The position numbers and the translations under genes are program-made. Positions 2,878 through 44,599 of a DNA stretch of 64,000 bases are shown one piece after another (position 1 is the stretch's first letter; each line of letters opens with the position of its first letter). Below the pieces are notes generated by a model. It was given only the letters and a program-made list of their open reading frames with translations. It did not search any database and was not told the DNA's origin. The stretch is from Candidatus Shapirobacteria bacterium. Lineage in GTDB: Bacteria; Patescibacteriota; Microgenomatia; 0-14-0-10-38-17. The stretch is taken from NCBI GenBank assembly GCA_018052565.1, contig JAGPNC010000003.1:587-64586 (forward strand), read 5' to 3'.

Positions 2878-3897
2878 TTAAAACCAAAAAAGCGGGCTTT
2901 GGAGACGACGCAAGAATTTCTGGCCGGCAAAATTTAGAGCCGGGTTGGGAGAAGACAAATAATAATTAGCTAAACCTAAATTAGCCCTGTAAGAAGAAGG
3001 GTTTGCCTCGTAAGCTTTTTTAAAAAACCACAAGGCTTTTTCTCCTTCTCCCGCCGTTTGGAAGAAATTGGCCAAAGAGACAAGGCCGCAAGAAGAAGAG
3101 TTTTCTGCCGCTAACTTATTCTCATCTAAAACAATGGCGCTCGCCGCCGGCGAGGAGGTAAAAATCACCACCGCATCATCTAAATAAACTAACTTCCAGG
3201 CGGGATCGTGATAGAGGCGGCTTAAAAAAGTCTGAAACCATGGCGTCTGGTCATGGTGAAAAAGAAAAACTTCCTCAATTTGCCATTTGGCTACTAATTT
3301 TTCCCAAGTCTCGCTGTCTTCTTGAGCCTGACGATATTCTTCCCAAAACTCCGTCGGATAAGCCTCGGGACGGAAGTCGGTAAAAACTGGCCACTGGGGC
3401 CAAAGACAGCCCGCTAAAAAACTGCCGATGTCAAAATTATTGAAAAAATGAGTTCCCGGCACAGAATAAGTTTTAAAAAACTCCACTCCCCTCTCGGCTT
3501 CTTTTTCTCCTCCCCAGCCGAAAGAAGCTTCTCTATCATTAATCAGGTAATAATGGTTACTCGCATAAAAAACGGTAAAAAAGACAAAAGCCAAAAGGTT
3601 GAAAATAACCAAAGCGGGCTTTAACTTTTTGGATAAAGGGGAGTTAATTTTGTCCCAGAGGCGAGGCAAATTTCGGCCTAAAACAAAAAACGAAAAAAGA
3701 GCAAAAAACGGAAAGTGGCGGATTTGCCAAAAGGCGGCTCCTGATAGCGCTAACCAAACGGAAAAAAGCAAGCCATCGCGGCGAAGAAACATAAAGGTAA
3801 GTAAAACCAGAACAAAACAAAGCTTAAAAAAGAAGATGTTGCGAAAACCGCCAAAGCCTCCCAAAAAAAAAGATTGACTGATTTTCCGCAATCTCAT
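2878..3897 (-). CDS. hypothetical membrane-anchored protein with TPR-like C-terminus; possibly the C-terminal part of a frameshifted larger membrane protein
   Basis: TM helices at the N-terminus and a soluble W/F-rich domain. It overlaps the next ORF by 74 nt in another frame, across an A9 homopolymer (3857-3865). Confidence 0.4.
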   Translation of the reverse strand: MRLRKISQSFFLGGFGGFRNIFFFKLCFVLVLLTFMFLRRDGLLFSVWLALSGAAFWQIRHFPFFALFSFFVLGRNLPRLWDKINSPLSKKLKPALVIFNLLAFVFFTVFYASNHYYLINDREASFGWGGEKEAERGVEFFKTYSVPGTHFFNNFDIGSFLAGCLWPQWPVFTDFRPEAYPTEFWEEYRQAQEDSETWEKLVAKWQIEEVFLFHHDQTPWFQTFLSRLYHDPAWKLVYLDDAVVIFTSSPAASAIVLDENKLAAENSSSCGLVSLANFFQTAGEGEKALWFFKKAYEANPSSYRANLGLANYYLSSPNPALNFAGQKFLRRLQSPLFWF

Positions 3898-4609
3898 AAC
3901 CGTAGTTTTCCCAAATCAGAAAAGGCGCCAGCGCCCCCCTTAAGCCATAAGGATTAACTAAATTCGCCAAAATGGCCAAAACCACCGGTATGCTTTGGCG
4001 CGAAAACAGTTTCTTTTCCCTCCAAAGAGAAAAAAAATAGGCTACCAGAAGAAGGTCGCCAAAAACAAAAGAAAGATGGGCATTAACCCAAAACGCCTGG
4101 CAAATCGGTAAAAGATAAAGCCAGCGCTTTTCTCCCCTGTGGCTCTTGGCAAAAACTAAAAGATAAAGGGCGAAAAAGAAAAAGCCGAAAATTTCCGGCC
4201 GGACATCGGTTCTTTCCCGAAAAACCAAAAGAGGCAAAAGAAGAGCCGTAAAAGAAAGAAAGGCATTTTCTTCATCAACCACCAGAAAAAAAATTATCCC
4301 AAAGGCCAGAAGAAAAAGAAGAACCTTAAAGGCAACAAGCGCCCGATCCCCTCCTAAGCTAAAAACCTGATAAAAGACAACCTCCGCCAGCCAATGATGA
4401 TTGGTAAAGGGAAAATCGGGGGAAGTATAGGAAAAAAGATTTGTCCGCGGCAGATAATGCTCTTTTGAAATTACCTCCCCCAACCTTAGGTGGCGGCCTA
4501 AATCCTGACTCCACTCCCGGGTGGTAGTGTGAAAATAAAAAATAAAAACTAAAATAAGACTTAAAATTAGCCAAAAGAATTTTTTCCGGCTCACTTCCTT
4601 GGAGACCAA
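3824..4609 (-). CDS. polytopic integral membrane protein (possible N-terminal part of a split or frameshifted gene)
   Basis: About 8 predicted hydrophobic helices. It ends inside the start of the downstream ORF. Confidence 0.4.
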   Translation of the reverse strand: MVSKEVSRKKFFWLILSLILVFIFYFHTTTREWSQDLGRHLRLGEVISKEHYLPRTNLFSYTSPDFPFTNHHWLAEVVFYQVFSLGGDRALVAFKVLLFLLAFGIIFFLVVDEENAFLSFTALLLPLLVFRERTDVRPEIFGFFFFALYLLVFAKSHRGEKRWLYLLPICQAFWVNAHLSFVFGDLLLVAYFFSLWREKKLFSRQSIPVVLAILANLVNPYGLRGALAPFLIWENYGYEIAENQSIFFFGRLWRFSQHLLF

Positions 4610-5340
4610 AATATTCCCAAGGGGATCTTATCGTTGTTCTCTCCTAAAAATTCGAGTAAAGAGGAGTAGTTTTTCGGAGTGTTTTGGGGGTAATAAATTC
4701 TTTTTCTAAAATATTCTTGGTTATAATCATCGGACCAAACTAAACAGGGCATTATTATTTCTACCAAGGAAAAACCTTGGTGCTTGATGGCGGCTTCAAT
4801 GATAGCAGTGGCTTGGGGAAGATCAAAGGCGAAGGCACGAGAGAGGAAGGCCTTGGGCGAGGCGGCGGCGGTCAAGAGGAGAGGTTGAAGGGGAGGATAA
4901 GGATTGCCTTGAGGGGTGGATTTTGTTGCCAAACCGGCGGGGGTGGCGGAGGAAGCCTGACCGGCAGTAAGGGCAAAAACCAAATTATTGTGAAGCAAAA
5001 CGGTAATATTGTCATTTCTTTGAGCAGCGTGAATCAGATGATTAGCGCCTTCGTTTAAAAGACCGCCATCCCCTGCTTGGGCAATCACCGTTAATCCGGG
5101 ATTGGCCAACTTAGCCCCCACGGCCACCGGCACCGAGCGGCCATGGAGGGTGGCAAACCCGCAAACCCGCAAAAGATTAACCATATTTCCCCCGCAACCA
5201 ATATCATAAGTGACTACCGCGTCTTTTGGGGCAATTTTAAGCTCTACCAGAGCCTGTTTCAAGCTTTGCAAAACCCCAAAATTGCCGCACCCCGGACACC
5301 AGGTAGGAAGCTGGTTGGTAGAATAATTATTTATATTCAT
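4591..5340 (-). CDS. porB: 2-oxoacid:ferredoxin oxidoreductase, beta (TPP-binding) subunit
   Basis: CPGCGNFG cysteine motif, GDG TPP-binding motif, and a length typical of PorB/KorB. Confidence 0.8.
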   Translation of the reverse strand: MNINNYSTNQLPTWCPGCGNFGVLQSLKQALVELKIAPKDAVVTYDIGCGGNMVNLLRVCGFATLHGRSVPVAVGAKLANPGLTVIAQAGDGGLLNEGANHLIHAAQRNDNITVLLHNNLVFALTAGQASSATPAGLATKSTPQGNPYPPLQPLLLTAAASPKAFLSRAFAFDLPQATAIIEAAIKHQGFSLVEIIMPCLVWSDDYNQEYFRKRIYYPQNTPKNYSSLLEFLGENNDKIPLGIFWSPRK

Positions 5341-5370
5341 AATGGTAAGATAAATTTTTTAATGGCCGAG

Positions 5371-6333
5371 CTACCCCCTCTTCACTCTCTCTAAAGTCTC
5401 CAGATATTCCCTTGCGTCGCTAACGCTTTCCATCACAAACATCTCATTTTTATCCCCCCTTAACATTAAACACAATCCTCCCATCTGCCCTCCACCACCC
5501 ATGCCTCTCTTTGGCCCAAACTCATCATCAATTTTATAACACCCCCCAACGATTGCCAAGCGGCTCTTTCCGCCCCGCTGGAAAGAAAGATGCTCTCTGA
5601 CATGGTAATGCCCTAAATAGGAGACATCGGCATCGGGATAGACATGCTCTATAAATCTCTTACAGGCATTTGTCGGATTTAATTTACTCGCTCCCCAAAA
5701 TCTGTGGGTCATCGCTATCTTGTATTCCTGACTGCCATACTTAATCGTCAGCAAGCCCCCGCAGTTAAAGACAGGACAGGGCATATCTCTCAACCAAGTC
5801 CCCTCAAAACTTAACCCCCCTTTTTGGGAAAAGTCTTCGTGGTTGCCAAAGCTCATCGCTATCAGCTTTTCCTGTTTGGCTAATTTTCTCATTAACCCCT
5901 GAACAAGCAACGCCTGCTGTTCGGGAGTAATGCTATCTTCATAGACGCCAGCGGCTTGGGCGGTGTCAACCAAAAAGTTGTCGGCTAAGTCGCCGTTAGT
6001 GATAACATAAAGGTTCGGGGTTTTGCTGACAACCTCATAATCCCTCCAAAAGCCTCCATAATCGGTAAAAACGCTCCCAGCGTGTAAGTCGTTTAAAAGC
6101 CAAATGCCGATGGGAAGTTCGGGATGCTGGGGGTGGATTTCTACCGTTGCCTCTCTCTGGCCAACGGAATTCTCTTGGGCCAATCTTCTTGCCTCAGCTA
6201 AATGAGCCAAAAATCTTTCTTCGTTAAATGTCTGGGTTTTCTTATCTTCAAAAATAATTTCTTCTTGGGGTGGGACGACTATTCGTTTTACTTCCCTTCC
6301 TGATTTGTTGGCAATAATTATCTCTTTTCCCAT
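5371..6333 (-). CDS. calcineurin-like metallophosphoesterase
   Basis: GDLADNF, GNHE and GHYH metallophosphoesterase motifs. Confidence 0.7.
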   Translation of the reverse strand: MGKEIIIANKSGREVKRIVVPPQEEIIFEDKKTQTFNEERFLAHLAEARRLAQENSVGQREATVEIHPQHPELPIGIWLLNDLHAGSVFTDYGGFWRDYEVVSKTPNLYVITNGDLADNFLVDTAQAAGVYEDSITPEQQALLVQGLMRKLAKQEKLIAMSFGNHEDFSQKGGLSFEGTWLRDMPCPVFNCGGLLTIKYGSQEYKIAMTHRFWGASKLNPTNACKRFIEHVYPDADVSYLGHYHVREHLSFQRGGKSRLAIVGGCYKIDDEFGPKRGMGGGGQMGGLCLMLRGDKNEMFVMESVSDAREYLETLERVKRG

Positions 6334-6645
6334 AAAAACCCTTAAAATTTAGCCTCAACGGCTTCACCAAATAGGCCTAAAAGCCGAAAACTATTTTTTC
6401 CTTCCCTATTTTTTCGTACACCGCCTCAAATAAAATCCTCTCTTGCCCAGCGAGGTATTATCAAGATTCTTCCCCTCGCCTCAAATCTCCCCAGATTGGC
6501 GATAAACTTAATACGGGCCGTACGCCGTGGGCTTTCTATAGCTGTCATTCTTCTGGCCAAAGCCAAAATCTGTCTTAATTTAAGATTTACAACCTGCACA
6601 CGCTGGCGAAATCCCACACCGCATGGCACGGGGCAAGGTAAGTTT

Positions 6646-8394
6646 TCATTGGATTTTTCCTCCGGCCCCGCCCCCGGCGGGGTCAGCCTCGGGCAAGAGC
6701 CCCCCTTGGGCGGGAACTTTCTCTTCTATCTCTCCTTCAAAAAACGGCCGGCCATCATCTTTAAGAATCTGCTGGCCAACATTAAGCCCCGTTTCCATTT
6801 TGACTAATCTGGCCAACTGACCGCTACTGTTATTCTCAATGCTAATAATTTTTTTTGCTTTCCCCAAAATTTCTTTTGCTTCCTGAGGAAACGGCCAAGG
6901 CCGCCAAAAATGCAAAAAATTAACCGCCGATCCTTGTTCCAAAAGCTTTTCCTGCGCCCGCAAAACCGCCGCTTTAGTTGAGCCAAAAGAAACAAGGGTG
7001 ATTTTGGCATCTTTCGGGCCATAAAGAGTGCTACCGGGAGAAGAAAACCCCGCCAGCTTTTTTAACAATTTCTCTTTCATTTTAACTCTTGTCTGAGCGT
7101 CCTCTTGAGAAAATCCTTCCTCATCATGAACATAAGAATTAGTTAAAAATGGGGTTTGGCCGGGAAATGCCCGCGGCGAAATGCCGTCCTCGGTTAATTG
7201 ATAGCGCCGGTAAACTTTTAAGTCCGTCGCGTTGGCTAATTTCCCCCGATTAACCTTTAAGCCCCATTTTTCGGCAGAAAAAAAATCGCTTGAGAAAACG
7301 CTTTCGCTTAAATATTTATCGGTTAAAACCACCACCGGCAGCTGGTAAATTTCCGCTAAATTAAAGGCCTCAAAAGTAAGCCGATAAGCCTCAGCCGGAT
7401 CACCCGGGGAAAAAATAATTCGGGGAAATTCCCCCTGCCCGGCGGAGATTAAAAACAGCAAGTCCTCTTGCGAGGTCCAGGTGGCCATACCAGTTGAGGG
7501 ACCGGTGCGCATCCCCTCCACTACCACCAAAGGAATTTCGGCGGCTCCGGCCATGCCAAAAGCCTCAACCATTAAAGAAAACCCGCCGCCGGAGGTGGCC
7601 ACCATCGCCCGCCGGCCGGCAAAAGAAGCACCAATAGCGCTGTTAATTCCCGCAATTTCATCTTCGGGGGTAAAAACAATCATTTTATTCTCCTCTTTTT
7701 TTTGCGCTAAAATCGCCAAAATGGAGTTAATGGGCGTCATCGGATAAATAGCGGCAAAGCCAACTCCGGCTTCCAAGGCCCCCCGGGAGATAGCTTCATT
7801 ACCACTCAAAAACAACTGACTTTTCCCGACCTTCGGCAGCGGGGGAACATCTTTTCCTGCCCAGCTGATTTTAGCGGCCATTTTGTATCCTTCCTCCGCC
7901 GCCTTTTGGTTGCCGCTCACCACTTTTTCTCCCTTAGCACTAAAAGCATTTTTAAGACTCTCTCTTAAGGCCGAAAAAGGTAAGCCCATAAGGCCAAAAA
8001 CAGCGCCGGCGGCTACCGAGTTGCGCGCCAAAAAAAATCCGGCTGTTTTTTGAGCAATTTCGTCCAACGGCAAACCAACTGCTTCGCTATATTGAAGTGG
8101 TTTGTTTTCCCCTGTGTTATATAATAATAATCCTCCCTTTTTTCTCTCCGATAAATACAAGGGAATATTTTCCGGAGAAAAAATCACCAAAAGATCGCTT
8201 TTTTTCTCGGGAAGAGGCGAGGAATGGTCGGCAGAAAAAGAAATCTGGCTCACATTATCACCCCCCCGAATACGCGAAGGATATTCGGGATAAGAAAGAA
8301 CCGAAAAACCTAAACTGCTTAATGCCTCTCCCACCGCCCGTCCGCCTTCCATAATCCCAAAACCAGCGGGAGCGGAAAATTTAATCGAAAACAT
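6646..8394 (-). CDS. porA: 2-oxoacid:ferredoxin oxidoreductase, fused gamma/alpha subunit (3' end altered by a repeat insertion)
   Basis: N-terminal gamma-like domain followed by alpha-subunit motifs (GNEAISRGALEAGVGFAAIYPMTP). The last ~25 codons are the translation of a GC-rich repeat core (6661-6715). Confidence 0.7.
   Translation of the reverse strand: MFSIKFSAPAGFGIMEGGRAVGEALSSLGFSVLSYPEYPSRIRGGDNVSQISFSADHSSPLPEKKSDLLVIFSPENIPLYLSERKKGGLLLYNTGENKPLQYSEAVGLPLDEIAQKTAGFFLARNSVAAGAVFGLMGLPFSALRESLKNAFSAKGEKVVSGNQKAAEEGYKMAAKISWAGKDVPPLPKVGKSQLFLSGNEAISRGALEAGVGFAAIYPMTPINSILAILAQKKEENKMIVFTPEDEIAGINSAIGASFAGRRAMVATSGGGFSLMVEAFGMAGAAEIPLVVVEGMRTGPSTGMATWTSQEDLLFLISAGQGEFPRIIFSPGDPAEAYRLTFEAFNLAEIYQLPVVVLTDKYLSESVFSSDFFSAEKWGLKVNRGKLANATDLKVYRRYQLTEDGISPRAFPGQTPFLTNSYVHDEEGFSQEDAQTRVKMKEKLLKKLAGFSSPGSTLYGPKDAKITLVSFGSTKAAVLRAQEKLLEQGSAVNFLHFWRPWPFPQEAKEILGKAKKIISIENNSSGQLARLVKMETGLNVGQQILKDDGRPFFEGEIEEKVPAQGGLLPEADPAGGGAGGKIQ
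6661..6715. repeat. GC-rich hairpin-core repeat inside the 3' end of porA
   Basis: ccggccccgcccccggcggggtcagcctcgggcaagagccccccttgggcgggaac resembles the cores at 20141, 24223 and 39291. Confidence 0.6.
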
Positions 8395-8693: not shown

Positions 8694-8696
8694 GCC

Positions 8697-8830
8697 TTGA
8701 AAAGTTAAAAGTTAAAAATAAAATTCAAAATGCAAAAATCAAAGTTCAAAATTGCAAGTTAAAAATTGAAAGTTTTTACTCTACTTTTGAATTTTTTCAT
8801 TGTAAGTAATTTTGACTTTTGACTTTTTTA
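8697..8830. repeat. AT-rich palindromic k-mer spacer element (aaaagtYaaaagt family)
   Basis: Left arm aaaagttaaaagttaaaaat…caaaattgcaagttaaaaattgaaagt, mirrored by ttttgaatttt…ttttgacttttgactttt. Confidence 0.8.
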
Positions 8831-9026
8831 TTATACCCTCTTGCAAAAGATAATAAGATCTCTAATAATATATCATAAATATCCCTTAAGGTGCGGGCCA
8901 TTGTCATTTTGACGAGAAGGCCAAATTTTAAAAAACAGGGAAGACCCTAATTTTTGGGGAACGGTGCCGCCGCGGTGAAAGTCCGAAGACCTACCTTAAG
9001 GAAGCTGTCCCGGCCAGGACAAGATT

Positions 9027-11499: not shown

Positions 11500-11760
11500 C
11501 TTTTAATAAGCAAGCGCAAGGCGCAGCTTGAAATGTCAAATCTCAGGTAGAAATGTCAAAACGGAAATCTCAAAACTCAAAACTACATGTCAAAACTCAA
11601 ATCTAGAAAACAATTTTCTTTAGAAAAGTTTTGCCATTTGACATGTAGATTTACCATTTAAGATTTGCGATTTGAGATTTTTTGCCATTTGCCATTTGAG
11701 ATTTCTACTCGAGTTTTGAGATTTTCCAAAAACTGAGTAATTTAGCAATTGAGCAATTTA
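11500..11760. repeat. AT-rich palindromic spacer element, variant k-mer (aaatgtcaaatctcaaaactc)
   Basis: Arms gaaatgtcaaatctcag…ctcaaaactcaaaac versus gttttgagattt…tttgccatttgagatttc. Confidence 0.8.
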
Positions 11761-19576: not shown

Positions 19577-19869
19577 TTTTTATTCAAATAATTAGTTAAA
19601 AATAAAAAATGTTTAATTAAAGTTTGGCCGATAAGGGTTTTCTCTCATAATTATAAGACATTATAATTGTTTATTCCGTCTTTGTCAACGGCTCTTCCGC
19701 AACTCCCGACGTCGATTAGCTTCGAACCTCAGGGTTTTTCAGCACCTAAAATACTATAAGCACTCCATTATCCCGCCTTATGCGTGATCTCTCGGAAAGA
19801 GACTATGTAGTAATGGAGTAAGTTTAGATAGATTCTAAACCTCATGCCAGAGGGGCGCAGAATAGGCTG

Positions 19870-20235
19870 GTTAAAATTTTCTTATTCACTTTTGACTTTT
19901 TATTTGTACTTTTGACTTTTAAATTTTAACTTTTAACTTTTCTTCTCAATATTGCCCCTTAATGCTACACCTTAAGGGTGGGTTCCTGCTTGCCCCCTTG
20001 GCATTCCAGACTATCAAGCTCCGCTCTTGCGCGGCAAGACGATTTATTGTAAGCTAGAATTGTTTAAATTCAAAAGTTAAAATTCAAAATGCAAAATTAC
20101 AATTCAAAATCCAAAATTTTTAATTTTAACTTGCAATTTTTCCGCCAGAGGCGCAGGCCAGAGGTCTGTCGGCCTTGGGCAGAGACCCGCCTTGGGCGGG
20201 AACTTTTGACTTTTAACTTTTGACTTTTAACTATT
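19870..20235. repeat. composite spacer: AT-rich arms + GC-rich nested-hairpin core (core at 20141-20200)
   Basis: The core is tccgccagaggcgcaggccagaggtctgtcggccttgggcagagacccgccttgggcggg, flanked by acttttgacttttaacttttgactttt arms. Confidence 0.8.
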
Positions 20236-20238: not shown

Positions 20239-21108
20239 GTGGAACAGCATCCCATTCCCCAACACATTTCGTCTTACGAGTTTCGCCTTATTGGTGAAAT
20301 GACCCTGGGCCAGTTTGCCCGCGTCGCCGGCGGAGTAATTGTAGCGCTTATTTTTTATGCCCTCCCCCTGCCCGGCTTTATTGGGTGGTTTTTAGTTCTC
20401 CTTTCGGCCGGCTTAGGAATCGCCTTCGCTTTCCTCCCCGTTGAGGGTCGACCACTGGAAGTTTGGCTTCTTGCTTTTCTTCGCTCAATTTATTCCCCCA
20501 CGCAATATGTTTGGCGAAAAGTGGTTGCCTCTTTTGATTTCCAAACCCAAACCCCCTCTCCCGAAGAAACCGTACCAGCAATTTCTGCCTCAAAAACCCT
20601 GACACCCCAAGAGCTGGCCCTTCTGCGCACTTTCGGACAGAAGGATACTGAGTTTTATAGCGAGGAAGAAATTAAGAAAGCCCAGGCGTTTCTCGCTCTT
20701 TATCAGCAGCCTGCCAACGCGACGCCTTCTCCTTCTTCGTTGACTGACATTAAAAAAGAAGAAAAAGCCAAAGAAGCCCGCTTCGAGGAAGGCCTTCCCT
20801 TCCCTGCTCCCCCAGATGAACCAAACATCATTGTCGGCATGGTTATCGATAAAAACGGCAAAATCGTGGAAGGAGCCATTATTGAGATAAAGAGCAGGGA
20901 GGGGGAAACCGTCCGGGCAATGAGGAGCAACAAATTAGGACAGTTTCGGACAATTTCTCCCCTGGTAAACGGCGAATACCGAATTTCCTGCGAGAAAGAG
21001 GGGCTTAATTTTGATATAATGAAAATTAAACTTGAGGGAAAAATTCTCCCGCCGGTAGAGATAAGAGAAAAGGGCCCTAAAACAACAAATAATACCCAAG
21101 AGGAATAG
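20239..21108 (+). CDS. PrgI/VirB3-like T4SS membrane protein with C-terminal carboxypeptidase-regulatory-like beta domain
   Basis: The N-terminus (SSYEFRLIGEMTLGQFARVAGG) matches the PrgI-family pattern, followed by two TM segments. GTG start. It sits two genes upstream of the VirB4-like gene. Confidence 0.5.
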   Translation: MEQHPIPQHISSYEFRLIGEMTLGQFARVAGGVIVALIFYALPLPGFIGWFLVLLSAGLGIAFAFLPVEGRPLEVWLLAFLRSIYSPTQYVWRKVVASFDFQTQTPSPEETVPAISASKTLTPQELALLRTFGQKDTEFYSEEEIKKAQAFLALYQQPANATPSPSSLTDIKKEEKAKEARFEEGLPFPAPPDEPNIIVGMVIDKNGKIVEGAIIEIKSREGETVRAMRSNKLGQFRTISPLVNGEYRISCEKEGLNFDIMKIKLEGKILPPVEIREKGPKTTNNTQEE

Positions 21109-21119
21109 TATATTTAATA

Positions 21120-21275
21120 AAAAAAGGGGCTAAAATAACTAAAATTCAAAGTTCAAAATGCAAAATGAAAAATGAAAAATTAAAATGCAAAAATTATTAA
21201 AAAAAGAAAATTCTTTTTACACTTTACATTTTATTTTATTTTGGACTTTTAAATTTTAATTTTTAACTTTTTTCC
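21120..21275. repeat. AT-rich palindromic spacer element
   Basis: aaaattcaaagttcaaaatgcaaaatgaaaaatg… mirrored by ttttggacttttaaattttaatttttaactttt. Confidence 0.75.
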
Positions 21276-22052
21276 GTGCCTGACCAAAAAAACCCGCCCG
21301 TCCGCGCCTCTACCCAAGAAGCCATACCTGTCGAGGACATTCGCGACAATTTGGTTATTTTAAAAGACGGCTCGGCGGCGATGATTCTCCAGATTAGCGC
21401 CCTAAATTTTGACCTCCTTTCCCAAAGAGAGCAAGAGGCGCTGATTTTTGCCTATGGCAGCCTTCTTAATTCCCTTAATTTTTCGGTGCAGATTTTTATT
21501 CGCTCCCAAAAAAAAGATATCACCGGTTATCTCTCGCTTTTGGACAAAGCCAAGGACAACCAAACCAATCCTCTTCTTAAAAAATTAATCACCGATTATC
21601 AAAAATTTATCAAAGAAGTGGTTACCAAAACAGAGATTTTGGATAAAAAATTTTATCTGGTTATTCCTTTTTCCTCTCTTGAGTTAGGGTTTGGAGCAGC
21701 GGCAAAAAGCATCACCAAAAGCCTGCCGCTTTTCAAAAAAACCACTCCTTCTCAAAAATTGGACCTAATTGAAGTTTCCCAAAAAGCCCAAACTTCTCTT
21801 CTCCCTAAGCGAGACCATTTGATCCGACTTTTCTCCCGCCTCGGCCTTTCTGCCCGCCAATTAACCACCAACGAACTTATTTATCTTTTCTTCCGGATTT
21901 ATAACCCCAATGCCAAAGGAATCGAGCCGGCTCTGACCAAAGAGTATCTCTCTCCTCTAACTACCAGCCTCTTGATCCCACCGAAAATTGAAGAAGGACA
22001 AGCATCGCCAGATCAGGGGAAACAAAAAGAACAAGCAGTTCGTAATACGTAG
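21276..22052 (+). CDS. hypothetical T4SS-associated protein
   Basis: 258-aa ORF with a GTG start inside the conserved TTTTTCCGTGCCTGACC leader. Confidence 0.45.
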   Translation: MPDQKNPPVRASTQEAIPVEDIRDNLVILKDGSAAMILQISALNFDLLSQREQEALIFAYGSLLNSLNFSVQIFIRSQKKDITGYLSLLDKAKDNQTNPLLKKLITDYQKFIKEVVTKTEILDKKFYLVIPFSSLELGFGAAAKSITKSLPLFKKTTPSQKLDLIEVSQKAQTSLLPKRDHLIRLFSRLGLSARQLTTNELIYLFFRIYNPNAKGIEPALTKEYLSPLTTSLLIPPKIEEGQASPDQGKQKEQAVRNT

Positions 22053-22054
22053 GC

Positions 22055-22270
22055 TGTAATCTCAAATCTTAAAACGCAAATGTCAAATCTAAAACGCAAA
22101 ACGCAAACCTGCCTTGCCGGCAGGCAGGATTCAGGATTAAAAAATGCAAAAATCAAAGATCAAAAATCAAAATGAAAATGTAAAATGCAAAAAGAATTTT
22201 CTTTGGATCTTAACAATTTTTGAATTTTAATCTTTCATTTTGACTTTTAACTTTTGACTTTTAATTTTTT
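22055..22270. repeat. composite spacer with GC hairpin core (cctgccttgccggcagg at 22108-22135)
   Basis: k-mer arms (aatctcaaatct…, …ttttgacttttaacttttgactttt) around the GC hairpin. Confidence 0.75.
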
Positions 22271-22274
22271 TTCC

Positions 22275-24128
22275 ATGCCTAATCCTATCAACCAACTATT
22301 AGAAAAAATTAAACCTCCTAAAAAAGAAAGCCCGGCAAAAGAGGCCGCCGCCGCAAAAGAAAGCGGCGAAACTTTCGGCGCCGGCGTGCCCACCATTAAA
22401 GATATCATCGCCCCCTCGGCCATCGAGGTTGACTTTTCCTATCTTAAAATTGACAATAAATATTTGCGAACTTTTTTTGTAGCTGGCTATCCCCGTTTCG
22501 TTTCCGCTAACTGGCTCTCTCCTTTAATTAATTTTGACCACACCTTGGATATTTCTATGTTTATTTATCCGGTAGAAATAAAAGGAACTATGGACGATCT
22601 ACGCCGGAAAATTGCCGAAATGGAAGCGGAAATTTCCACCGATATCCAGCGAGGGCGAGTTGTTGACCCCTCCACCCAGGCTAAATTGGAAGACGCCTTG
22701 GCGCTTCAGGAAGAATTAGCCAAAGGAACCGAGCATTTCTTCCAGTTCGGCCTTTATATCACTATTCCCGCCGATTCCCTCCAGGAGTTGGAAGAGGTAA
22801 GCCGTGAAGTTGAGGCCACCCTGGGGTCGCTTTTAATCATTGCCAAAACAGCGAGCCTGCAAATGGAAGAAGGTTTTAAAACCACTCTCCCTATTGGCAT
22901 TGATTTTTTGAACATCAGCCGTAATATGGATACCACCTCGCTGGCGACCACTTTCCCCTTTACTTCTTCGGAGCTCACGGCCAACGAAGGAATTTTATAT
23001 GGCGTTAATCAACATAATGGTTCTTTGGTTATTTTTGATCGCTTCAATCTGGAAAATTCTAATGCCGTTATTTTTGGCAAGTCCGGCTCAGGAAAAAGCT
23101 ATCTGGTAAAACTTGAAGCCCTCCGTTCTTTAATGATGGGAACAGAATTAATTATTATTGACCCGGAAGAGGAATACCGCCAGCTGAGCGAGGCCGTTGG
23201 AGGAGAATATATTAAGTTTGGCTTTGGCTCACGGGCAAAAATTAACCCCTTTGACCTTCCCAGCCAGCAATTATCATTCCCGGGTGAAAAAACAGAAAAT
23301 GAACTTGGCTTCAAGCTTCTTTCCCTCCACTCTCTCTTAAAAATAATGTTAGGGGAAATGAGCGCTAATGAAGAGGCCATCCTTGACCGGGCGCTGGTGG
23401 CCACTTATAAAAGCAAGGGAATTACCCCCGATCCTGTTACTTACGAACAGGAGCCGCCGCTTTTAGAAGATCTTTACAAAACTCTTCTGGGAATGGAGAG
23501 CAAAGAAGGTCAACTTTTAGCCACCCGTTTGGAAAAATTTGTTAAGGGTTCGCTGACGGGGATTTTTGACCAGCATTCTAATGTTAATCTAAAAAATCCG
23601 TTTACGGTTTTTTCCCTAAAAGACGTTGAGGGTGACTTAAGGCCGGTGGTGATGTTTATTATCCTTGATTACATTTGGACCAAAGTAAAGGCCGAGATTA
23701 AAAAAAGAATCGTCATTGTTGACGAAGCGTGGTATTTAATGCGTTATCCTGATTCGGCCCAATTTTTGGAATCGATCGCCAAAAGAGCGCGTAAATATTA
23801 TTTAGGCCTTTCCACCATCACCCAAGATGTTCCCGACTTTCTCTCCTCGCCCTATGGAGAATCAATTATCACCAACTCTTCTGTGCAAATTTTAATGAAA
23901 CAGCATCCGGCCGCCATCGACCGCTTAGGGGAGGTCTTTTATCTCTCCGAAGGAGAGAAAAATTTTCTTTTATCCGCCAATATCGGCGAGGGGCTCTTCT
24001 TTGCCGGGGACAATCATGTGGCGATTAAGGTAATTTCCTCCCCCCAAGAGCATAAGTTAGTCGGTTCCAGTCCGAAAGAAAAAACAGTCGCGGTGGCCAA
24101 AGAAGCCAAAGAAACGGAAGAAAAATAA
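22275..24128 (+). CDS. VirB4/TraE/PrgJ-family type IV secretion ATPase
   Basis: Walker A GKSGSGKS and Walker B VIVDEAWY. The N-terminal region is typical of PrgJ/TrsE. I set the start at the ATG at 22275; the ORF-track start (22254) lies inside the repeat. Confidence 0.8.
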   Translation: MPNPINQLLEKIKPPKKESPAKEAAAAKESGETFGAGVPTIKDIIAPSAIEVDFSYLKIDNKYLRTFFVAGYPRFVSANWLSPLINFDHTLDISMFIYPVEIKGTMDDLRRKIAEMEAEISTDIQRGRVVDPSTQAKLEDALALQEELAKGTEHFFQFGLYITIPADSLQELEEVSREVEATLGSLLIIAKTASLQMEEGFKTTLPIGIDFLNISRNMDTTSLATTFPFTSSELTANEGILYGVNQHNGSLVIFDRFNLENSNAVIFGKSGSGKSYLVKLEALRSLMMGTELIIIDPEEEYRQLSEAVGGEYIKFGFGSRAKINPFDLPSQQLSFPGEKTENELGFKLLSLHSLLKIMLGEMSANEEAILDRALVATYKSKGITPDPVTYEQEPPLLEDLYKTLLGMESKEGQLLATRLEKFVKGSLTGIFDQHSNVNLKNPFTVFSLKDVEGDLRPVVMFIILDYIWTKVKAEIKKRIVIVDEAWYLMRYPDSAQFLESIAKRARKYYLGLSTITQDVPDFLSSPYGESIITNSSVQILMKQHPAAIDRLGEVFYLSEGEKNFLLSANIGEGLFFAGDNHVAIKVISSPQEHKLVGSSPKEKTVAVAKEAKETEEK

Positions 24129-24129
24129 T

Positions 24130-24355
24130 ACCTAATTCAAAAGTCAAAAGTCAAAATTCAAAATTACAATTAAAAAGTTAAAAGTTTTTCGCTTTACTTT
24201 TAACTTTTAGCTTTTGACTTTTTCCGCCAGAGGCGCACCCGCCTTGGGCGGGATCAGCCTTGGGCAGAGACCCGCCTCGGGTGGGAACTTTTGACTTTTA
24301 ATTTTTAATTATTACATTGCGTTCTAACTTTTGACTTTTAACTTTTGACTTTTTC
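24130..24355. repeat. composite spacer with GC core (24223-24285)
   Basis: Core tccgccagaggcgcacccgccttgggcgggatcagccttgggcagagacccgcctcgggtggg. Confidence 0.8.
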
Positions 24356-24358
24356 CCC

Positions 24359-27300
24359 ATGCCCGACCAAGACAAATTAATTCTTTCCCGCCAAACGGCA
24401 GAACTCTTGCTTCAGGGAATCGCCTTTTTTAAAGAAAACCCGACCGCCAAAAAATGGAAAAACCTAGATAAAGACCTTTTTATTTTTCTTTGCCGCGAAC
24501 TTTGCCAACTCCCCCTTGAGGAAGAAGAAAATTTTGATGAATATCTTGCTCGTGCCGAAGAACTTTTAAAAAGAATCATCGGCGAAGAACTTACTGCCCC
24601 CTCCCTGCCCCAAAACTTGGAAGAACTAGTTGAGGCCTGGGAAAGCTTTGCTACCCAAAAAGATGCCCAAGCCCCTCCTTCTCCAAGAATTAACCTGCCA
24701 ACAGTCGAGGATTGGATTAAAGCTTTAAAAGAAAAAAGAGTTGAAGAAGAAATTGCTCCCCGGGTGAGAAAGGCTCTTCAAACCACCCTCCCCCACCTTT
24801 CCCAGAAAGACCAGGCCAGCCTTGGGAAACAAATTAGCCAGGAAATTGCCAAATCCCCCTTCTTTGTCCTTCCCCAAGAAGAAAAAGAGGCAGTGGTCCA
24901 AAGAGCAGTAGAAAAAAGCCTTGGGGAAAAGCAAATTGTCCTTGGCGAAGAGCAAAAGCAAGCCTTAGCAAAAGCAATGGTAACCCCTTCTCTTCCTCGA
25001 AAAGAGCCGAAGCCAAAAGAAACGATCACCCCTCCTGTTTTTAAAAAATTCCAAGAACAGATTGAACAAGTTTTAAGAACATCCTTAGAGACAACAGGAA
25101 AAATTGACGAAGAAACCCTTGCTGAGTTGAGTCCTTTAATAAGCGGGGCAGTGGCTTCGAATCTCCCTCTTCTATCCCAAGGCGAATTAGAAGCCCTCAG
25201 CCTAGCCGATAAGAGCAAAATTGCCGAGGGAACAACCACCGCCGCCTTAGGAACGATTGGTAAAGCTTTAGTGGCCAAAGGCATTAGTCTCTCCCCCAGC
25301 CAAACCGCCACCCTTTTAGATCAACTCACCATCACCGCCATCTCTAACTTAGAAAGTTTAGCGCCAGTTCTTCCGGAAAACCGCCTTCCCCAGGAAAAAA
25401 CCCCGGAGACGGAAGGAACCGCCACGCCAATTTTAACCTTTTTGCTCCATCCCAAGGAAACCGCCACCCTTATTCTTAACCCCCAAACAAGAAGAAGCCT
25501 TGAAGCTCTCGACAGAGACCCCTCTCTTCCTTTTAGTCTTGTTTTGGAAGGAGAGGAAACCTCTCGGGGAGAACAAATTAAAAATATTTTTCTCCTAAGG
25601 GGGATTAATTTTCAAAGCATTAATTTAGCCGCCCCCCTTGAAGAAGAAACCCAGGCTTTAGTATTGGCGGCCAAGGGAATCACCAGCGCCGATATTAGTT
25701 CCGCCATCAAAGCCGCCCGGGAGGAAAATTGGCCGGCCGAAGAAATAAGGAGGCTTGAGGAAATTTTTAGCCGTCAACTAAAATTTGAAAGAGATTTTCC
25801 TGGATTAACCCAACGGTTCTTTCGTTTCCGAAAAGCAAAAGAAATCATCTCGGGCCAAAAAAATGATCAAAGGCTACCTTCCCGCCCCTATCTTAAAATT
25901 AAAAGCCAAACCAGCTTTGACACTGCCAGATGGAAAGCCCTGAAAATCATTAATAGTTTTTTGGAGAAAATTGGCCTTGTGGAAAAAGAAACCACTGTTT
26001 CGGGAAAAATTATCCAATCCTCCAAAATCTGGTATTATCTCCAAAAAGCCTTCCAGCCGGTAGCTTCTTTTTGGCAAAAAACAAACATCGGGAAAACCAT
26101 TGCGGATTGGCTTTCAAGACAAACTTATCATTTTTGGCAAGACGCCTTGGGGCAAATAAGAGGATTTAGCCAGGCGGGAGTTAAGAAAGCGGTTCAGGAA
26201 GGAACCAAAAAAGGAGTCACTAAAGCAATCACCTGGCTTTCTACCAAATTGGCGGCCACCAAACTGGGAGCTGCTTTAGGCTCAATTGCCCCGGGAATAG
26301 GCAATGCGATAGGGGCAGTGGCCGGCTTTTTGGTTGATTTAGGAATATCTTTCTTTAAAAAGGGCGGCGAATTTTTAGAAAAACTTACCGGCGGCCAAAC
26401 CGAGGCGGAACAAAAGCTTAAAGTCGCCCTAGGACCATTTTCCTTCTTGGTTTCTCCTTTGGCAATTATTGTTATTGGTGCCGCCATTATCCCTCTTTTG
26501 CTTGTTTTTCACGATTCTGCCAACACCCAAAGTCTTTTTTTTGTTTCAGAGGACGGAGGGGGAGGAGTTCTTCCTCCTTCCTCACGCCTTATTTTGCCTT
26601 CTCTAGAATTGGCTGAGATAATCAAAAGGGCAGCTAAAGATATTTGTGTTCCGGAAGCCCTTCTTCTGGCAATCTCCAGAACTGAGGCCGCAAGGGCGTG
26701 GGGGTATTCCTCTGAAGAAGTCAAACTATTTTCTACCCCTAATTGGTGGGAAACACCCGGAGCTCCTATCTGTCGCGGCCTTTGTTATAACACTTGCAAC
26801 CCGGGAGAATGCAGCCAGTGGGACCCGGATTGCGCTTGGACTAATTATGGCGGCATCAGTCAAGAAGCGGATGTGCGGGGAGTTATGCAGTTTGAATTGA
26901 ACACTTTTAACGGTTATCGCAACGAGCTTTTGGGCATTTTAGGAAGAGAACCTCATCGCTGTCTTATTCCCGATTCCATCTATGCAGCAGCATTAAAAAT
27001 AAAAGCCGATAGCGGCACCGACAACACCCAATGCGATGATTGGTCAGACGAAATCGTCCGCAAAGTAGCCAAGGCCTACTGCGGCTCTTGTGATTCTCCT
27101 AATTGTCCCAATTATTGCGACATTGTCCTTTACTACTATCATGATTATCAAAATTCCCTAGATATTATCACTAATCCCTCCAGCAACCCCAACGGCCTAA
27201 TAGCTGAAAAAATCGCTGTTATTATGGCCAGATGCAACCATGATCCCGATGGCTATGGTTTCATTAACGCTTCGACCCAAAACGCCGCCATTGGTTGTTT

Positions 27301-27742
27301 GGAAAATTCTGACCTTGATTCTTCGGTTAAACAAAGACTAATCGCGATTATTAAAGATCAGGTCAGTAGATACGGAACCCTACAGTGCGTTGGTTTTATT
27401 CAGGCAATAGAAGGCAGTCTCTTTCCTTCTTGCGGTTCAAGCGCCAGTGATTGGGCCCAAGAAAAATGCTGGCAAAATAATAATTACTATTTCCTAAACA
27501 ACAATATTAGTCTTGTTCAGGAGGGAGACATCGCCGTAACTGCCGGAAGCAGTCCCGGCAGCAGTGGCCATATTGGCTTTATTACTAAAATCTATAGAGA
27601 TGGTAGCGGCAATATCCAAAAACTTCTTTTTGTTTCTGCTTGGGGTGGCGGCCAGGACGGGAATGGTGGTAATATTAATGCGAAGATCGTGCCCTGGGAC
27701 TATTTCACGAGCAGGGGCTATCTTTTTATCCATCGAAAATGA
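24359..27742 (+). CDS. T4SS cell-wall hydrolase, PrgK/VirB1-like (lytic transglycosylase + CHAP domains) with long N-terminal linker and TM segment
   Basis: SLT-like E…GVMQF segment around 26650-26900. A C-terminal CHAP-like Cys/His pair (C…GHIGFI). TM helix near aa 690. Confidence 0.65.
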   Translation: MPDQDKLILSRQTAELLLQGIAFFKENPTAKKWKNLDKDLFIFLCRELCQLPLEEEENFDEYLARAEELLKRIIGEELTAPSLPQNLEELVEAWESFATQKDAQAPPSPRINLPTVEDWIKALKEKRVEEEIAPRVRKALQTTLPHLSQKDQASLGKQISQEIAKSPFFVLPQEEKEAVVQRAVEKSLGEKQIVLGEEQKQALAKAMVTPSLPRKEPKPKETITPPVFKKFQEQIEQVLRTSLETTGKIDEETLAELSPLISGAVASNLPLLSQGELEALSLADKSKIAEGTTTAALGTIGKALVAKGISLSPSQTATLLDQLTITAISNLESLAPVLPENRLPQEKTPETEGTATPILTFLLHPKETATLILNPQTRRSLEALDRDPSLPFSLVLEGEETSRGEQIKNIFLLRGINFQSINLAAPLEEETQALVLAAKGITSADISSAIKAAREENWPAEEIRRLEEIFSRQLKFERDFPGLTQRFFRFRKAKEIISGQKNDQRLPSRPYLKIKSQTSFDTARWKALKIINSFLEKIGLVEKETTVSGKIIQSSKIWYYLQKAFQPVASFWQKTNIGKTIADWLSRQTYHFWQDALGQIRGFSQAGVKKAVQEGTKKGVTKAITWLSTKLAATKLGAALGSIAPGIGNAIGAVAGFLVDLGISFFKKGGEFLEKLTGGQTEAEQKLKVALGPFSFLVSPLAIIVIGAAIIPLLLVFHDSANTQSLFFVSEDGGGGVLPPSSRLILPSLELAEIIKRAAKDICVPEALLLAISRTEAARAWGYSSEEVKLFSTPNWWETPGAPICRGLCYNTCNPGECSQWDPDCAWTNYGGISQEADVRGVMQFELNTFNGYRNELLGILGREPHRCLIPDSIYAAALKIKADSGTDNTQCDDWSDEIVRKVAKAYCGSCDSPNCPNYCDIVLYYYHDYQNSLDIITNPSSNPNGLIAEKIAVIMARCNHDPDGYGFINASTQNAAIGCLENSDLDSSVKQRLIAIIKDQVSRYGTLQCVGFIQAIEGSLFPSCGSSASDWAQEKCWQNNNYYFLNNNISLVQEGDIAVTAGSSPGSSGHIGFITKIYRDGSGNIQKLLFVSAWGGGQDGNGGNINAKIVPWDYFTSRGYLFIHRK

Positions 27743-28790: not shown

Positions 28791-29258
28791 ATGAAAAGAA
28801 ATAATCTTTTTCTTGTTATCATCTTAGTCTTTGGAGTTGCTTTCTTATTCCTCAGGCAATTTATTGTCCAAACCGAAGAGGAAAATTCTTTATTCGAAAA
28901 AGATTACCACTCCATCTCGCCCACGAAAGAAGTTATTTCGCCCACGAAAGAAGTTATTTCGCCCACGAAAGAAGTTATTTCGCCCACGAAAGAAGTTATT
29001 TCGCCCACGAAAGAAGTTATTTCGCCCACAGAAGAAGAAATAGACTATCTCCAAAAAGAAAAACTCATAAGCCTTCTTCCTGTTAGAAAGTCAGATTTTG
29101 ATATGGAATATCTAGCTCAAGATAACGTCTTTATTGTTTTGATCTCCGCCAATGACTTCAATGCCGGAAAAAGAAAAGCAATCAGTTGGCTGGAAAGCCA
29201 AGGCATTAGTAACTGGGAAAAATTACCTCTTATCTGGGGAAAAAAGGGAGGATTTTAA
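28791..29258 (+). CDS. hypothetical membrane-anchored protein containing 6x SPTKEVI heptad repeats
   Basis: N-terminal TM, a tandem 21-bp coding repeat, and a C-terminal domain paralogous to 29308. Confidence 0.5.
   Translation: MKRNNLFLVIILVFGVAFLFLRQFIVQTEEENSLFEKDYHSISPTKEVISPTKEVISPTKEVISPTKEVISPTKEVISPTEEEIDYLQKEKLISLLPVRKSDFDMEYLAQDNVFIVLISANDFNAGKRKAISWLESQGISNWEKLPLIWGKKGGF
28917..29042. repeat. 6 x 21-bp perfect tandem repeat (tcgcccacgaaagaagttatt), last unit degenerate
   Basis: Read directly. It lies in frame within CDS 28791-29258, encoding (SPTKEVI)x5 plus SPTEEEI. Confidence 0.9.
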
Positions 29259-29307
29259 AAAGCAAAACCATAAAATATCTTTTCGTTAAAAGCAAAAAAC
29301 TTTTAAT

Positions 29308-29724
29308 ATGGGAAAAAGAAAAAATACTCTTCTTTTAATTTGTTTTTTATCTTTTTTAAGTTGTTTGCTGATATTTGGCCGGATTTATTCTATCCGTGAG
29401 AAAGGCGAGATTCCCTCGCCTGCACAAACCAAAACGTCTGGGCAAACATTATTTCTTGACGCTATCCCCTCACCGTCGCCTTCTGCCCCTCCGGTCACCA
29501 ATACTACTAAAAGCTATTTAAAACAAAAAGTTATCAATCTTCTGCCGATAACAACCGAAGATTTCATTATTGAATACTCGCCTGACACCGACATATTCTT
29601 TATTATCGCCACTCATCAGCCAAAAGAATTATGTTACCAAAGAGCTGAAGATTGGCTTAGACAACAAGGATTAACAAATCTGGCAGAAATTAATATCATT
29701 AAGAAGGAAGTAGGAGAAAAATAA
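29308..29724 (+). CDS. hypothetical membrane-anchored protein (paralog of 28791)
   Basis: Same architecture as 28791. The C-terminal segments LLPITTEDFIIEYSPDTDIFFIIATHQ…WLRQQGLTNL parallel LLPVRKSDFDMEYLAQDNVFIVLISAND…WLESQGISNW. Confidence 0.5.
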   Translation: MGKRKNTLLLICFLSFLSCLLIFGRIYSIREKGEIPSPAQTKTSGQTLFLDAIPSPSPSAPPVTNTTKSYLKQKVINLLPITTEDFIIEYSPDTDIFFIIATHQPKELCYQRAEDWLRQQGLTNLAEINIIKKEVGEK

Positions 29725-29735
29725 AAAAGGAGCAG

Positions 29736-31269: not shown

Positions 31270-31270
31270 T
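31190..31270. repeat. AT-rich palindromic spacer element (upstream of dnaA start)
   Basis: gaaattcaaaattcaaaagtcaaaatttaaaattgcaagttaaaagttaaaagttttt, mirrored by ttttggattttgacttttaa. Confidence 0.75.
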
Positions 31271-36189: not shown

Positions 36190-36310
36190 AAATGATCAAA
36201 AATTTAAAAGTTAAAAGTCAAAAGTTCCCGCCCAAGGCGGATCCGCCTCTGGCGGAAAAATTGCAAGTTAAAATTAAAAATTTTGGATTTTGAATTGTCA
36301 TTTTGCATTT
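36190..36310. repeat. composite spacer with short GC core (36226-36255, inverted orientation)
   Basis: gttcccgcccaaggcggatccgcctctggcgga between aaaagtcaaaagt arms. Confidence 0.75.
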
Positions 36311-36413
36311 TGACTTTTGATTTTTGAATTTAATTAAAAAACACATTTTGATTGGTAGTAATTGATGAGTAATCACGATTTTTGTCAAGGGGGATAATTT
36401 ACCGTTAATTTTT

Positions 36414-39204: not shown

Positions 39205-39375
39205 AAAATATTTAACGCAAAAATCAAAGATTAGAGATTAGAACCTAAATCAAAGCTCAAAAATATTTTTACATTTTGTTTTTAGTCTTTTCCGCCAGAG
39301 GCGCAGGCCAGAGGTCTGTCGGCCTTGGGCAGAGACCCGCCTTGGGCGGGAACTTTTAACTTTTGACTTTTAACT
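39205..39375. repeat. composite spacer with GC core (39291-39350), adjacent to the tmRNA 3' end
   Basis: The core is identical to the 20141-20200 copy. Confidence 0.8.
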
Positions 39376-39385
39376 TTTCTGCACA

Positions 39386-40313: not shown

Positions 40314-40319
40314 GATAAA

Positions 40320-40410: not shown

Positions 40411-40451
40411 AATTTGGCTTTTATTTGAATAGCAAGTAATGCCCCCTACTT

Positions 40452-44552: not shown

Positions 44553-44599
44553 AAAAAAAACGCCTAAATTTAAACTAAAGACGCTAATTATAGCTAGGT

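Follow-up and report, generated by a model that had tools for sequence, protein, structure and literature searches.

Known intragenic repeats and the present element

Selfish DNA inside protein-coding genes is a textbook oddity of Rickettsia and mitochondria. The Rickettsia palindromic elements (RPEs) are repeats of ~100-150 bp that form about ten families and occur in Rickettsia only (Ogata et al. 2000, as summarised in PMC10969869). Here we describe a short GC-rich, multi-hairpin palindromic element in a 64-kb stretch of DNA from a Candidatus Shapirobacteria bacterium (the window, meaning the whole stretch that was analysed). One copy of this element makes up the 3' end of korA, the gene for the alpha subunit of a 2-oxoacid:acceptor oxidoreductase, whose native end it has probably overwritten. 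Like the RPEs, the element is a palindromic repeat which lies between genes and often in frame within housekeeping genes whose protein is kept, and the hosts of both have small, reduced genomes. It differs from them in being built on a 30-nt unit (37-66 nt when merged), in being GC-rich in an AT-rich genome, and in residing in Patescibacteria. In-frame palindromic insertion in protein-coding genes was thus found here, but neither the length of ~100-150 bp nor the Rickettsia sequence families were, so the element is RPE-like in its action and not a member of that group. A sequence relationship to the RPEs is neither shown nor expected. RPE inserts are reported to lie in surface loops of their host proteins.

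Fungal mitochondrial GC clusters, or double-hairpin elements (e.g., yeast GC42), are also GC-rich palindromes of ~30-50 nt in AT-rich DNA, and they share structure-preserving stem substitutions, sporadic presence and the merging and shuffling of modules with the element described here (PMC4478555). They are organellar, however, and GC42 is reported to have an AG target dinucleotide (PMC4478555), whereas the present copies are flanked by A/T runs and the copy in the SerRS gene described below has no duplication. REP and BIME repeats with RAYT, and IS200/IS605-derived elements, resemble the element in being small, GC-rich, high-copy hairpins which are often paired and show an orientation bias, and in inserting without target-site duplication beside a short specific sequence. 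REPs are essentially extragenic, whereas many copies of the present element are intragenic and end in T or A runs. A conserved GTAG or CGTC tag stands at one end of REPs (PMC3733652); the column composition of 70 copies of the present element showed no such tag, with T-rich and A-rich ends instead. Intragenic MITEs (miniature transposable elements with inverted repeats), such as ERIC, Coxiella QMITE1 and the Anabaena MITEs (PMC10969869, PMC5896051), are likewise small non-autonomous repeats that give in-frame fusions and altered protein termini. MITEs usually measure 100-400 bp and have terminal inverted repeats and target duplications, whereas the present element is not of that size, and the alignment of filled and empty SerRS sites revealed no target-site duplication. 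Literature searches for CCGCCTTGGGCGG, for SAQGGSASGG and for palindromic or hairpin elements of the candidate phyla radiation (CPR) found no description for Patescibacteria in the searchable literature, and Patescibacteria are not mentioned in a 2024 MITE review (PMC10969869).

Repeat DNA at the 3' end of korA

A preliminary description of the locus, made from the sequence alone, had named the host gene porA, for a gamma/alpha 2-oxoacid:ferredoxin oxidoreductase (OFOR), and had claimed that a GC-core repeat copy forms its 3' end. The family assignment held, although a better name for the protein is a KorA/OorA-type alpha subunit to which a gamma domain is fused. It contains the Pfam domains POR (1.5e-29), POR_N (2.6e-48) and PFOR_II (5.7e-06), it is encoded next to a beta subunit with a TPP_enzyme_C domain, and it matches the solved structure 5b48_A (8e-77); it therefore belongs to the OFOR alpha subunits. 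An NCBI protein with 100% identity is annotated as 2-oxoacid:acceptor oxidoreductase subunit alpha of Candidatus Shapirobacteria bacterium, a member of the Patescibacteria/Microgenomates group. The open reading frame (ORF) ends in ...EGEIEEKVPAQGGLLPEADPAGGGAGGKIQ before its stop codon, and the C-terminus of the 582-aa protein is also given as ...DDGRPFFEGEIEEKVPAQGGLLPEADPAGGGAGGKIQ.

Alignment with orthologues showed where homology to other KorA proteins is lost. The alignment to the solved Sulfolobus OFOR alpha subunits 5b48_A and 5b46_A stopped at query residue 559, and the query coverage by all close homologues was ~96%. The C-termini of these homologues read ...DDGRPFFxGEIExK and then continue for just 2-10 variable residues, and C-terminus length varies among the relatives. 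The tail without homology comprises 23 codons (V560-Q582), slightly fewer than the ~25 first estimated, with V560 encoded at 6715-6717, Q582 at 6649-6651 and the last aligned residue, K559, at 6718-6720. None of the 119 closest KorA homologues contained PAQGG, a Gly/Ala/Pro tail or any other element-type peptide; orthologues that share the tail without repeat DNA, which would have spoken against its origin from the element, were therefore not seen.

The DNA that encodes this tail aligned over its full length with intergenic copies of the repeat, which together with the loss of homology at K559 confirmed the claim that a copy forms the 3' end of the gene. In an nhmmer comparison, 6650-6722 (73 nt) matched the copy at 24219-24291 with positions 5-71 aligned (67/73, E = 9e-6); therefore the whole GC core is present in korA, and not one 18-mer or hairpin alone. 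This full-length similarity beyond chance places the korA copy in the GC-core repeat family of the window. Repeat finding grouped 6682-6720 with 20168-20206 (82%), 24253-24291 (77%) and 39318-39356 (82%). The 18-mer CCCCCCTTGGGCGGGAAC at 6700-6717 on the plus strand had five more matches at no more than three mismatches (20186, 24238, 24271, 36224 on the minus strand, and 39336). Shuffled sequences gave an expectation of 0.06 occurrences, against the six observed, and six were reached in 0 of 100 shuffles; the generic hairpin CCGCCNNNGGCGG also occurred six times against 0.06 expected. The core at 6652-6717 has 74% G+C, and its modules follow the order of the copy at 24223-24288, with a 6-nt gap in the first module (Table 1).

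Each of the four remaining window copies occupies a spacer between ORFs (19576/20239, 24128/24359, 36150/36414, and 39151/tmRNA at 39385) and is nested in AT-rich arms of the 7-nt units AAAAGTC/TTTTGAC. The preliminary description had stated that the core is otherwise found only in intergenic spacers, which is correct for the window and not for the wider family. The junction of the intergenic copies reads AAAAGTT/CCCGCC, and the korA junction, AAAGTT/CCCGCC, matches it. When the non-coding copies were translated in the same frame, they gave peptides (VPAQGGSLPKAD... and VPTRGGSLPKADPAQGG...) near-identical to the one predicted by translation of the korA copy (VPAQGGLLPEADPAGGGAGGK). A six-frame check found the canonical two-module unit (36224-36260) to be free of stops in all six frames, and the four-module copies at 6652 and 24223 to have one stop each, in one of the six frames. 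Other genes of the window contained no further convincing copies by the metagenome-derived profile, the remaining matches having E > 1. A search of the whole window with Rfam 15 at gathering thresholds gave no match at any copy and returned just one transfer-messenger RNA (tmRNA) and three tRNAs. No consistent pattern emerged when the orientations of the window copies were compared with GC skew.

Table 1. Positions of the repeat copies, of korA and its tail, and of the neighbouring features in the window.
Feature	Position	Strand	Basis or remark
GC-core repeat copy in korA, four modules	6652..6720	+	Alignment to 24216-24292, nhmmer
korA copy, module 1	6653-6665		CCGCC-AGA-GGCGG remnant with 6-nt gap
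korA copy, module 2	6666-6682		Hairpin CCCCGCC-CCC-GGCGGGG
korA copy, module 3	6683-6699		TCAGCCTCGGGCAAGAG
korA copy, module 4	6700-6717		Degenerate hairpin CCCCCC-TTG-GGCGGG-AAC
korA copy, shared flank TTT	6718-6720		Also the K559 codon
Intergenic four-module copy	20140..20203	+	Nested in AT-rich heptamer arms
Intergenic four-module copy	24223..24288	+	Closest to the korA copy, same module order
Intergenic two-module copy (GTTCCCGCCCAAGGCGGATCCGCCTCTGGCGGAAAAA)	36224..36260	-	Canonical metagenome form; nhmmer against metagenome-derived profile, E = 3.4e-14
Intergenic four-module copy	39290..39353	+	Adjoins the tmRNA gene at its 3' end
korA/porA-type 2-oxoacid:acceptor oxidoreductase alpha subunit, fused gamma domain	6646..8394	-	582 aa; ORF call and Pfam
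Repeat-encoded C-terminal tail, codons 560-582 (VPAQGGLLPEADPAGGGAGGKIQ)	6649..6717	-	No homology to orthologues
Present stop codon TGA	6646..6648	-	Just beyond the element core, at the junction to DNA absent from sister loci
1.3-kb segment between element and korB	5341..6645	-	Missing from four of four sister loci
korB (beta subunit, thiamine pyrophosphate-binding), usual direct downstream partner of korA	4591..5340	-	Pfam TPP_enzyme_C 4.9e-24

The korA-korB region in sister loci

Four sister loci with KorA proteins 82-83% identical to that of the window were compared (L001, L002, L005 and L006). Their korA genes stop 3-10 codons past K559, with the endings FKS, FKSQKSKFKS or LLKDTN, and in three of the four the stop lies inside an AT-rich palindrome. 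The korA genes of L001 and L006 close with GAA AAA AAA TTC AAA AGT ... TAA, their last codons and stop being within the palindrome, and the GC core is absent from the spacer between korA and korB. L002 has a different short-unit palindrome in this spacer (unit ACACGAAT / ACAGGAT). In L005 the sequence AAA TTC AAA AGT TAA AATTTT is followed by CCGCCCAAGGCGGATCCGCCTCTGGTGGAAAAAG, so that a GC element is present in the same orientation as in the window and lies wholly after the stop codon; the junction, with the element immediately after TAA, reads AAATTCAAAAGTTAAAATTTT/CCGCCCAAGGCGGATCCGCCTCTGGTGGAAAAA. Unlike that of L005, the window junction reads GAGAAAGTT/CCCGCC, i.e., GAG AAA GTT/CCC GCC CAA GGG..., and the stop-bearing linker of the sisters is missing. 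The module order of the korA copy is that of the window's own copy at 24223, not that of L005.

The preliminary description had held that the element inserted into, or replaced, the native C-terminus, and had suggested a comparison with sister genomes. The comparison supported this, since the 3-10 codons and the stop that were replaced can be seen in the sisters. The replacement may have been a direct insertion across the stop codon or, given the L005 element right after its stop, a loss of the stop-bearing linker in front of an element already in place.

In all four sister loci korB follows korA after 52-165 nt, and in the window a 1.3-kb segment separates the element from korB. This segment contains an ORF of 320 aa (5371..6333, minus strand) which matches PHROG 7339, 'DNA repair exonuclease' (E = 1.6e-31); the ORF shows metallophosphoesterase-like motifs and has no Pfam match. 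In appearance the segment is a phage-derived gene that has landed in the spacer of the operon, right beside the GC element. The loss of the stop-bearing linker and the insertion of the 1.3-kb segment together indicate that the spacer has been remodelled at least twice in the window lineage. The GC core was also considered as one end of the 1.3-kb insert and rejected for this role, its other end (5341-5371) having no related repeat.

Many intergenic spacers of the window are long AT-rich palindromes made of the 7-nt units AAAAGTC/AAAATTC and the complement TTTTGAC, with GC cores inside. They were observed at 8695-8841, 11531-11734, 19858-20141, 21116-21271, 22037-22276, 24122-24222, 31177-31292, 36256-36339, 39732-39876, 40306-40429, 41247-41360, 44585-44960 and 57229-57307. 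The last korA codons of the sisters (FKS, FKSQKSKFKS) and their stop are encoded by such a palindrome arm.

A wider family of 30-nt double-hairpin units

A metagenome scan with the pattern CCGCCTTGGGCGGRAAMTTTT, in which one flank was fixed (RAAMTTTT), gave 84 loci, mostly on low-GC groundwater and sediment contigs. Matches on high-GC contigs (L024, L077, L084, L057, L075 and L091) were set aside as chance single hairpins by their appearance. The canonical unit consists of two adjacent 15-nt hairpins, e.g., TCCGCCAGAGGCGGA TCCGCCTTGGGCGGA, and is the same as the window copy 36224-36260 and the start of the L005 copy. In its basic 30-nt form it reads TCCGCC-NNN-GGCGGA twice and is stop-free in all six frames. 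We defined the family as two adjacent 15-nt hairpins of the form YCMGCC-NNN-GGCKGR beside an A/T run. The window copy at 36224 and the L005 copy (E = 6e-15) belong to it, and the korA copy matched the profile with its last module only, weakly (E = 0.016). The korA copy is a merged and decayed derivative of this family, whose versions in the window lineage are merged two- and four-module ones, four of them in AT-rich intergenic palindromes.

The family units adjoin A/T runs of the type AAAATTT or AAAGTT, both between genes and in frame within conserved genes, where they add 10-20 Gly/Ala/Ser/Pro-rich residues. Compensatory changes were found in the stem of the hairpin that the search had left unconstrained: among 70 distinct copies, one pair was C-G in 31 and A-T in 28, and a second was T-A in 45, C-G in 18 and G-C in three. 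Of 72 distinct contexts, 38 had a reading frame that was open for at least 150 nt to either side of the element. Thirty-six of the host ORFs share one strand relative to the element, ~32 of them are credible, and many are recognisable housekeeping genes. The usual in-frame reading is KF/KV-SAQGG-SASGG or KF-SAQGG-PASGW, with fewer cases of NFPPKADQPRAE; korA shows the same orientation as these intragenic copies and a PAQGG... reading. Among the metagenome loci L011-L094, about 33 intragenic copies have the AAAAKTT flank and the CAA-loop hairpin 5' in the host gene and at most three are in the opposite orientation, a bias that is present despite all six frames being open. The hosts span the Microgenomates and Parcubacteria groups of Patescibacteria. 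A scan of viral contigs with the element pattern gave no matches, and hence no sign of phage carriage.

The ~32 in-frame copies in conserved genes include those in SerRS, AhcY, MiaA and DnaG. The SerRS of locus L027, from Candidatus Liptonbacteria (Paceibacterota, Parcubacteria group), aligned over its full length with Aquifex SerRS (2dq3_A) except for an exact 10-residue gap, SAQGGSASGG. A 12-residue gap was found between AhcY and rat AhcY (1b3r_A), and two DnaG primases carry an insert relative to the window's own DnaG. Among relatives of the L027 SerRS, the insert is absent from proteins at 89%, 87% and 86% identity (WGEPRKFDFKPKDH) and present in those at 100% and 84%; more distant lineages have variants at the same site, which is filled at 67% identity too. 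At the DNA level the filled and empty sites differ by a clean 30-nt indel between AAA(A/G)TT(T/C) and GATTT, without target-site duplication. The occurrence of filled sites at 100%, 84% and 67% identity and of empty ones at 89% and 87% suggests that the site is a hot spot hit repeatedly or that excision is precise. In-frame copies were also found in topA (L095, 15750-15779) and in the alanine racemase gene alr (L097, 6028-6057), and the dnaG of L026 has a second in-frame two-hairpin copy at a second site; a single genome can therefore hold several intragenic copies. The filled and empty alleles, together with the copies in essential genes, show that the family is acquired or lost in discrete units and that essential genes tolerate it.

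The preliminary description had proposed a mobile element that is able to rewrite coding sequence. Taken alone, the korA locus supports this weakly; the family backs it strongly, with its ~32 in-frame copies and the exact 30-nt SerRS indel. The korA case is one instance of a wider, apparently undescribed family of 30-nt in-frame hairpins in Patescibacteria. We consider the odds to be evenly balanced for the fuller proposal, in which this is an undescribed, phylum-spanning, mobile family of 30-nt double hairpins which inserts beside A/T runs without target duplication and with a strong strand bias, very often in frame in essential genes (e.g., those for aminoacyl-tRNA synthetases, primase, topoisomerase and AhcY), with the KorA tail as one instance and possibly with mobilisation by a single-strand HUH-type enzyme or by a novel mechanism.

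Origin of the KorA tail

Taking the window, the sister loci and the family together, we propose that the 3' end of korA was probably overwritten by a copy of the element, and we favour an insertion or remodelling event specific to the window lineage. The ancestral korA would have ended ...GAA AAA TTC AAA AGT TAA AA, the ending that three of the four sisters have, and an AAAAGTT/AAAA site, containing the usual flank of the family (AAAAGTT), would thus have lain across its own stop codon. A four-module copy with the architecture of 24223-24288, placed directly after AAAGTT, would have destroyed the TAA and removed the FKS codons. Without further change that frame would, in the present sequence, stop after ten element codons (SRPRGALARG). 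The loss of one 7-nt unit (TTCAAAA) would then produce the observed GAG AAA GTT CCC... frame, which would be open for 23 codons through the element to the TGA just past the core. The native tail replaced in this way would have consisted of 3-10 poorly conserved codons and a stop. As a hypothesis only, the element may move by a single-strand HUH/Y1 mechanism akin to that of IS200/IS605 or REP-RAYT, which would fit its hairpin ends, its A/T-run target, its strong strand bias and the lack of a target duplication.

Several observations weigh against this proposal. The korA copy is diverged, with 77-82% identity to the other copies over the 39-nt core and the 6-nt gap. Its match to the two-module metagenome profile is weak, and therefore the case rests on the window's own four-module copies. 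The KorA protein is known from a single contig only, so its junction has no independent assembly. A scan of genome contigs for the korA locus recovered one close sister (L006) and none closer, and no empty korA site; as the closest relative is at most 83% identical, the empty site and the order of events cannot be read directly. The GC element in the same spacer of L005 permits an ancestral element with loss of the stop alone. As for the target, the fixed flank in the search pattern makes the preference on that side partly circular, and six copies found without the flank constraint adjoin T or A runs with no strict motif. No transposase or other mobilising function was identified in the 64-kb window and the genome fragments, where RAYT and TnpA were not searched for.

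The L005 arrangement leads to the rival that survives best, namely read-through into an element that was already in the spacer. Here a small deletion in the AT linker, perhaps by slippage of heptamer units or during the neighbouring 1.3-kb insertion, would have removed the TAA and fused the ORF to the element, with no new insertion into coding DNA. The L005 element has the same orientation and starts 8 nt past the TAA, the spacer is composed of slippage-prone 7-nt units, and the window spacer was in any case remodelled by the 1.3-kb insertion, which removed the distal AT arm. However, the two junctions differ by a net 14 nt, at least two separate deletions and more steps overall would be required, and the window copy has the four-module structure of the window's own copies rather than the L005 architecture. 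L001 and L006, which are equally related, have no GC element there, and the presence in L005 may therefore be an independent event in a favoured target. We regard read-through as possible but rather doubtful, and retain overwriting by the element as the preferred reading.

It is improbable that the GC core is not selfish DNA but a functional signal in RNA or DNA that acts where korA meets its downstream gene, for instance a protein-binding site, an intrinsic terminator or a stabiliser of the mRNA 3' end. On the plus strand the intergenic copies do present a GC hairpin followed by T runs (CCCGCCTTGGGCGGGAACTTTTGACTTTT), those at 24223 and 39290 lie downstream of plus-strand genes, and the stem is kept through compensatory changes. 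In the orientation relative to korA, however, the element has no U run, and no terminator-like site was called at 6646-6722 on the minus strand, on which AAAAATCC comes after the element. Neither the placement nor the orientation of the copies at 20140 and 36224 is that of a terminator. A terminator midway through an essential gene, the situation of ~32 copies, would be lethal. No Rfam match was obtained, and the coding copy has lost above-background folding: against shuffled sequences, RNA folding gave z = -1.3 for the korA copy, no better than the shuffles, and z = -3.0 for an intergenic copy. A terminator role was accordingly rejected both for the copy in korA and for those inside other genes.

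An assembly or base-calling artefact, either a chimeric join at the repeat or a G/C homopolymer indel that creates a false read-through, is very unlikely. The sequence comes from a metagenome-assembled genome, with the protein seen in one contig only, and a probable homopolymer frameshift lies 2.8 kb away at a T9 run. But the longest exact match of the korA copy to any other copy is ~17-18 nt, well under assembly k-mer sizes, and synteny resumes at korB after the extra gene, which does not fit a simple mis-join. No frame has a stop-bearing linker before the element, and an error of +/-1 would still run the ORF into it, one alternative frame being fully open and the other stopping ten codons in.

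That the tail is a selected protein feature, such as a flexible linker or docking peptide, with the repeat likeness secondary, is the least credible reading of all: the tail is Gly/Ala/Pro-rich and linker-like, in an intact ORF called as a protein by NCBI, but it is absent from the 119 homologues, including four at 82-83% identity, and its DNA aligns full-length with non-coding copies that give near-identical same-frame peptides. The tail is most likely a tolerated, disordered by-product and not an adaptation, because the native tail is FKS-like and unconserved, the coding hairpins have decayed, and the solved OFOR homologue itself has 18 more residues past the end of the alignment.

Other features of the window

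The genes at 20239-27742 (plus strand) encode PrgI-family, TraG P-loop/VirB4-like and CHAP-domain proteins, a cluster resembling a type IV secretion or conjugation system, and GC cores are found at its start (20140) and inside it (24223). Some 30 nt lie between the four-module core at 39290-39353 and the 3' terminus of the tmRNA gene (39385-39749, minus strand), with SmpB (39912-40313, minus strand) encoded just upstream; this core is oriented so as to read as a hairpin with T runs on the strand complementary to that of the tmRNA.

Downstream of korB lies a gene (2878-4609, minus strand) that is a single ORF of 571-576 aa in the sisters and is split in the window. Residues 1-251 are in frame -1 and residues 256-576 in frame -2, in overlapping ORFs, with the break at the T9 run near 3850. 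Slippage, a sequencing error or decay to a pseudogene could account for the split.

A perfect 21-nt tandem repeat (ATTTCGCCCACGAAAGAAGTT, ~6 copies) at 28893-29058 encodes ISPTKEV repeats within the ORF 28791..29258 (plus strand), a small protein with, apparently, an N-terminal hydrophobic segment. The sequence TGAAATACTATGTAGTATTTCA, a perfect palindrome of 22 nt that has no relation to the GC core, occurs in three copies at 1857-1884, 2738-2765 and 54302-54329. The cumulative GC skew has its minimum near 30 kb, with a change of sign there (around 29000-32000), which may mark a replication origin or terminus.

Biological implications

The family behaves like small selfish DNA that extends proteins without breaking them. 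If the proposal is correct, a much smaller, 30-nt analogue of the RPEs exists in two major groups of Patescibacteria, so that parasites within genes are tolerated even where streamlining is extreme, and may help to shape such genomes. How the element transposes can be tested directly, given the clean filled and empty sites without duplication, the covariation in the hairpin and the bias in orientation. In korA, the odd C-terminus of a central-metabolism enzyme would be explained without invoking a new function. More widely, the family would generally supply the proteins of minimal genomes with short Gly/Ser/Ala loops and with rewritten termini. It would thereby offer a concrete mechanism for the lineage-specific insertions and altered termini of CPR proteins, and would point to a systematic cause of artefacts when CPR genomes are annotated and aligned.

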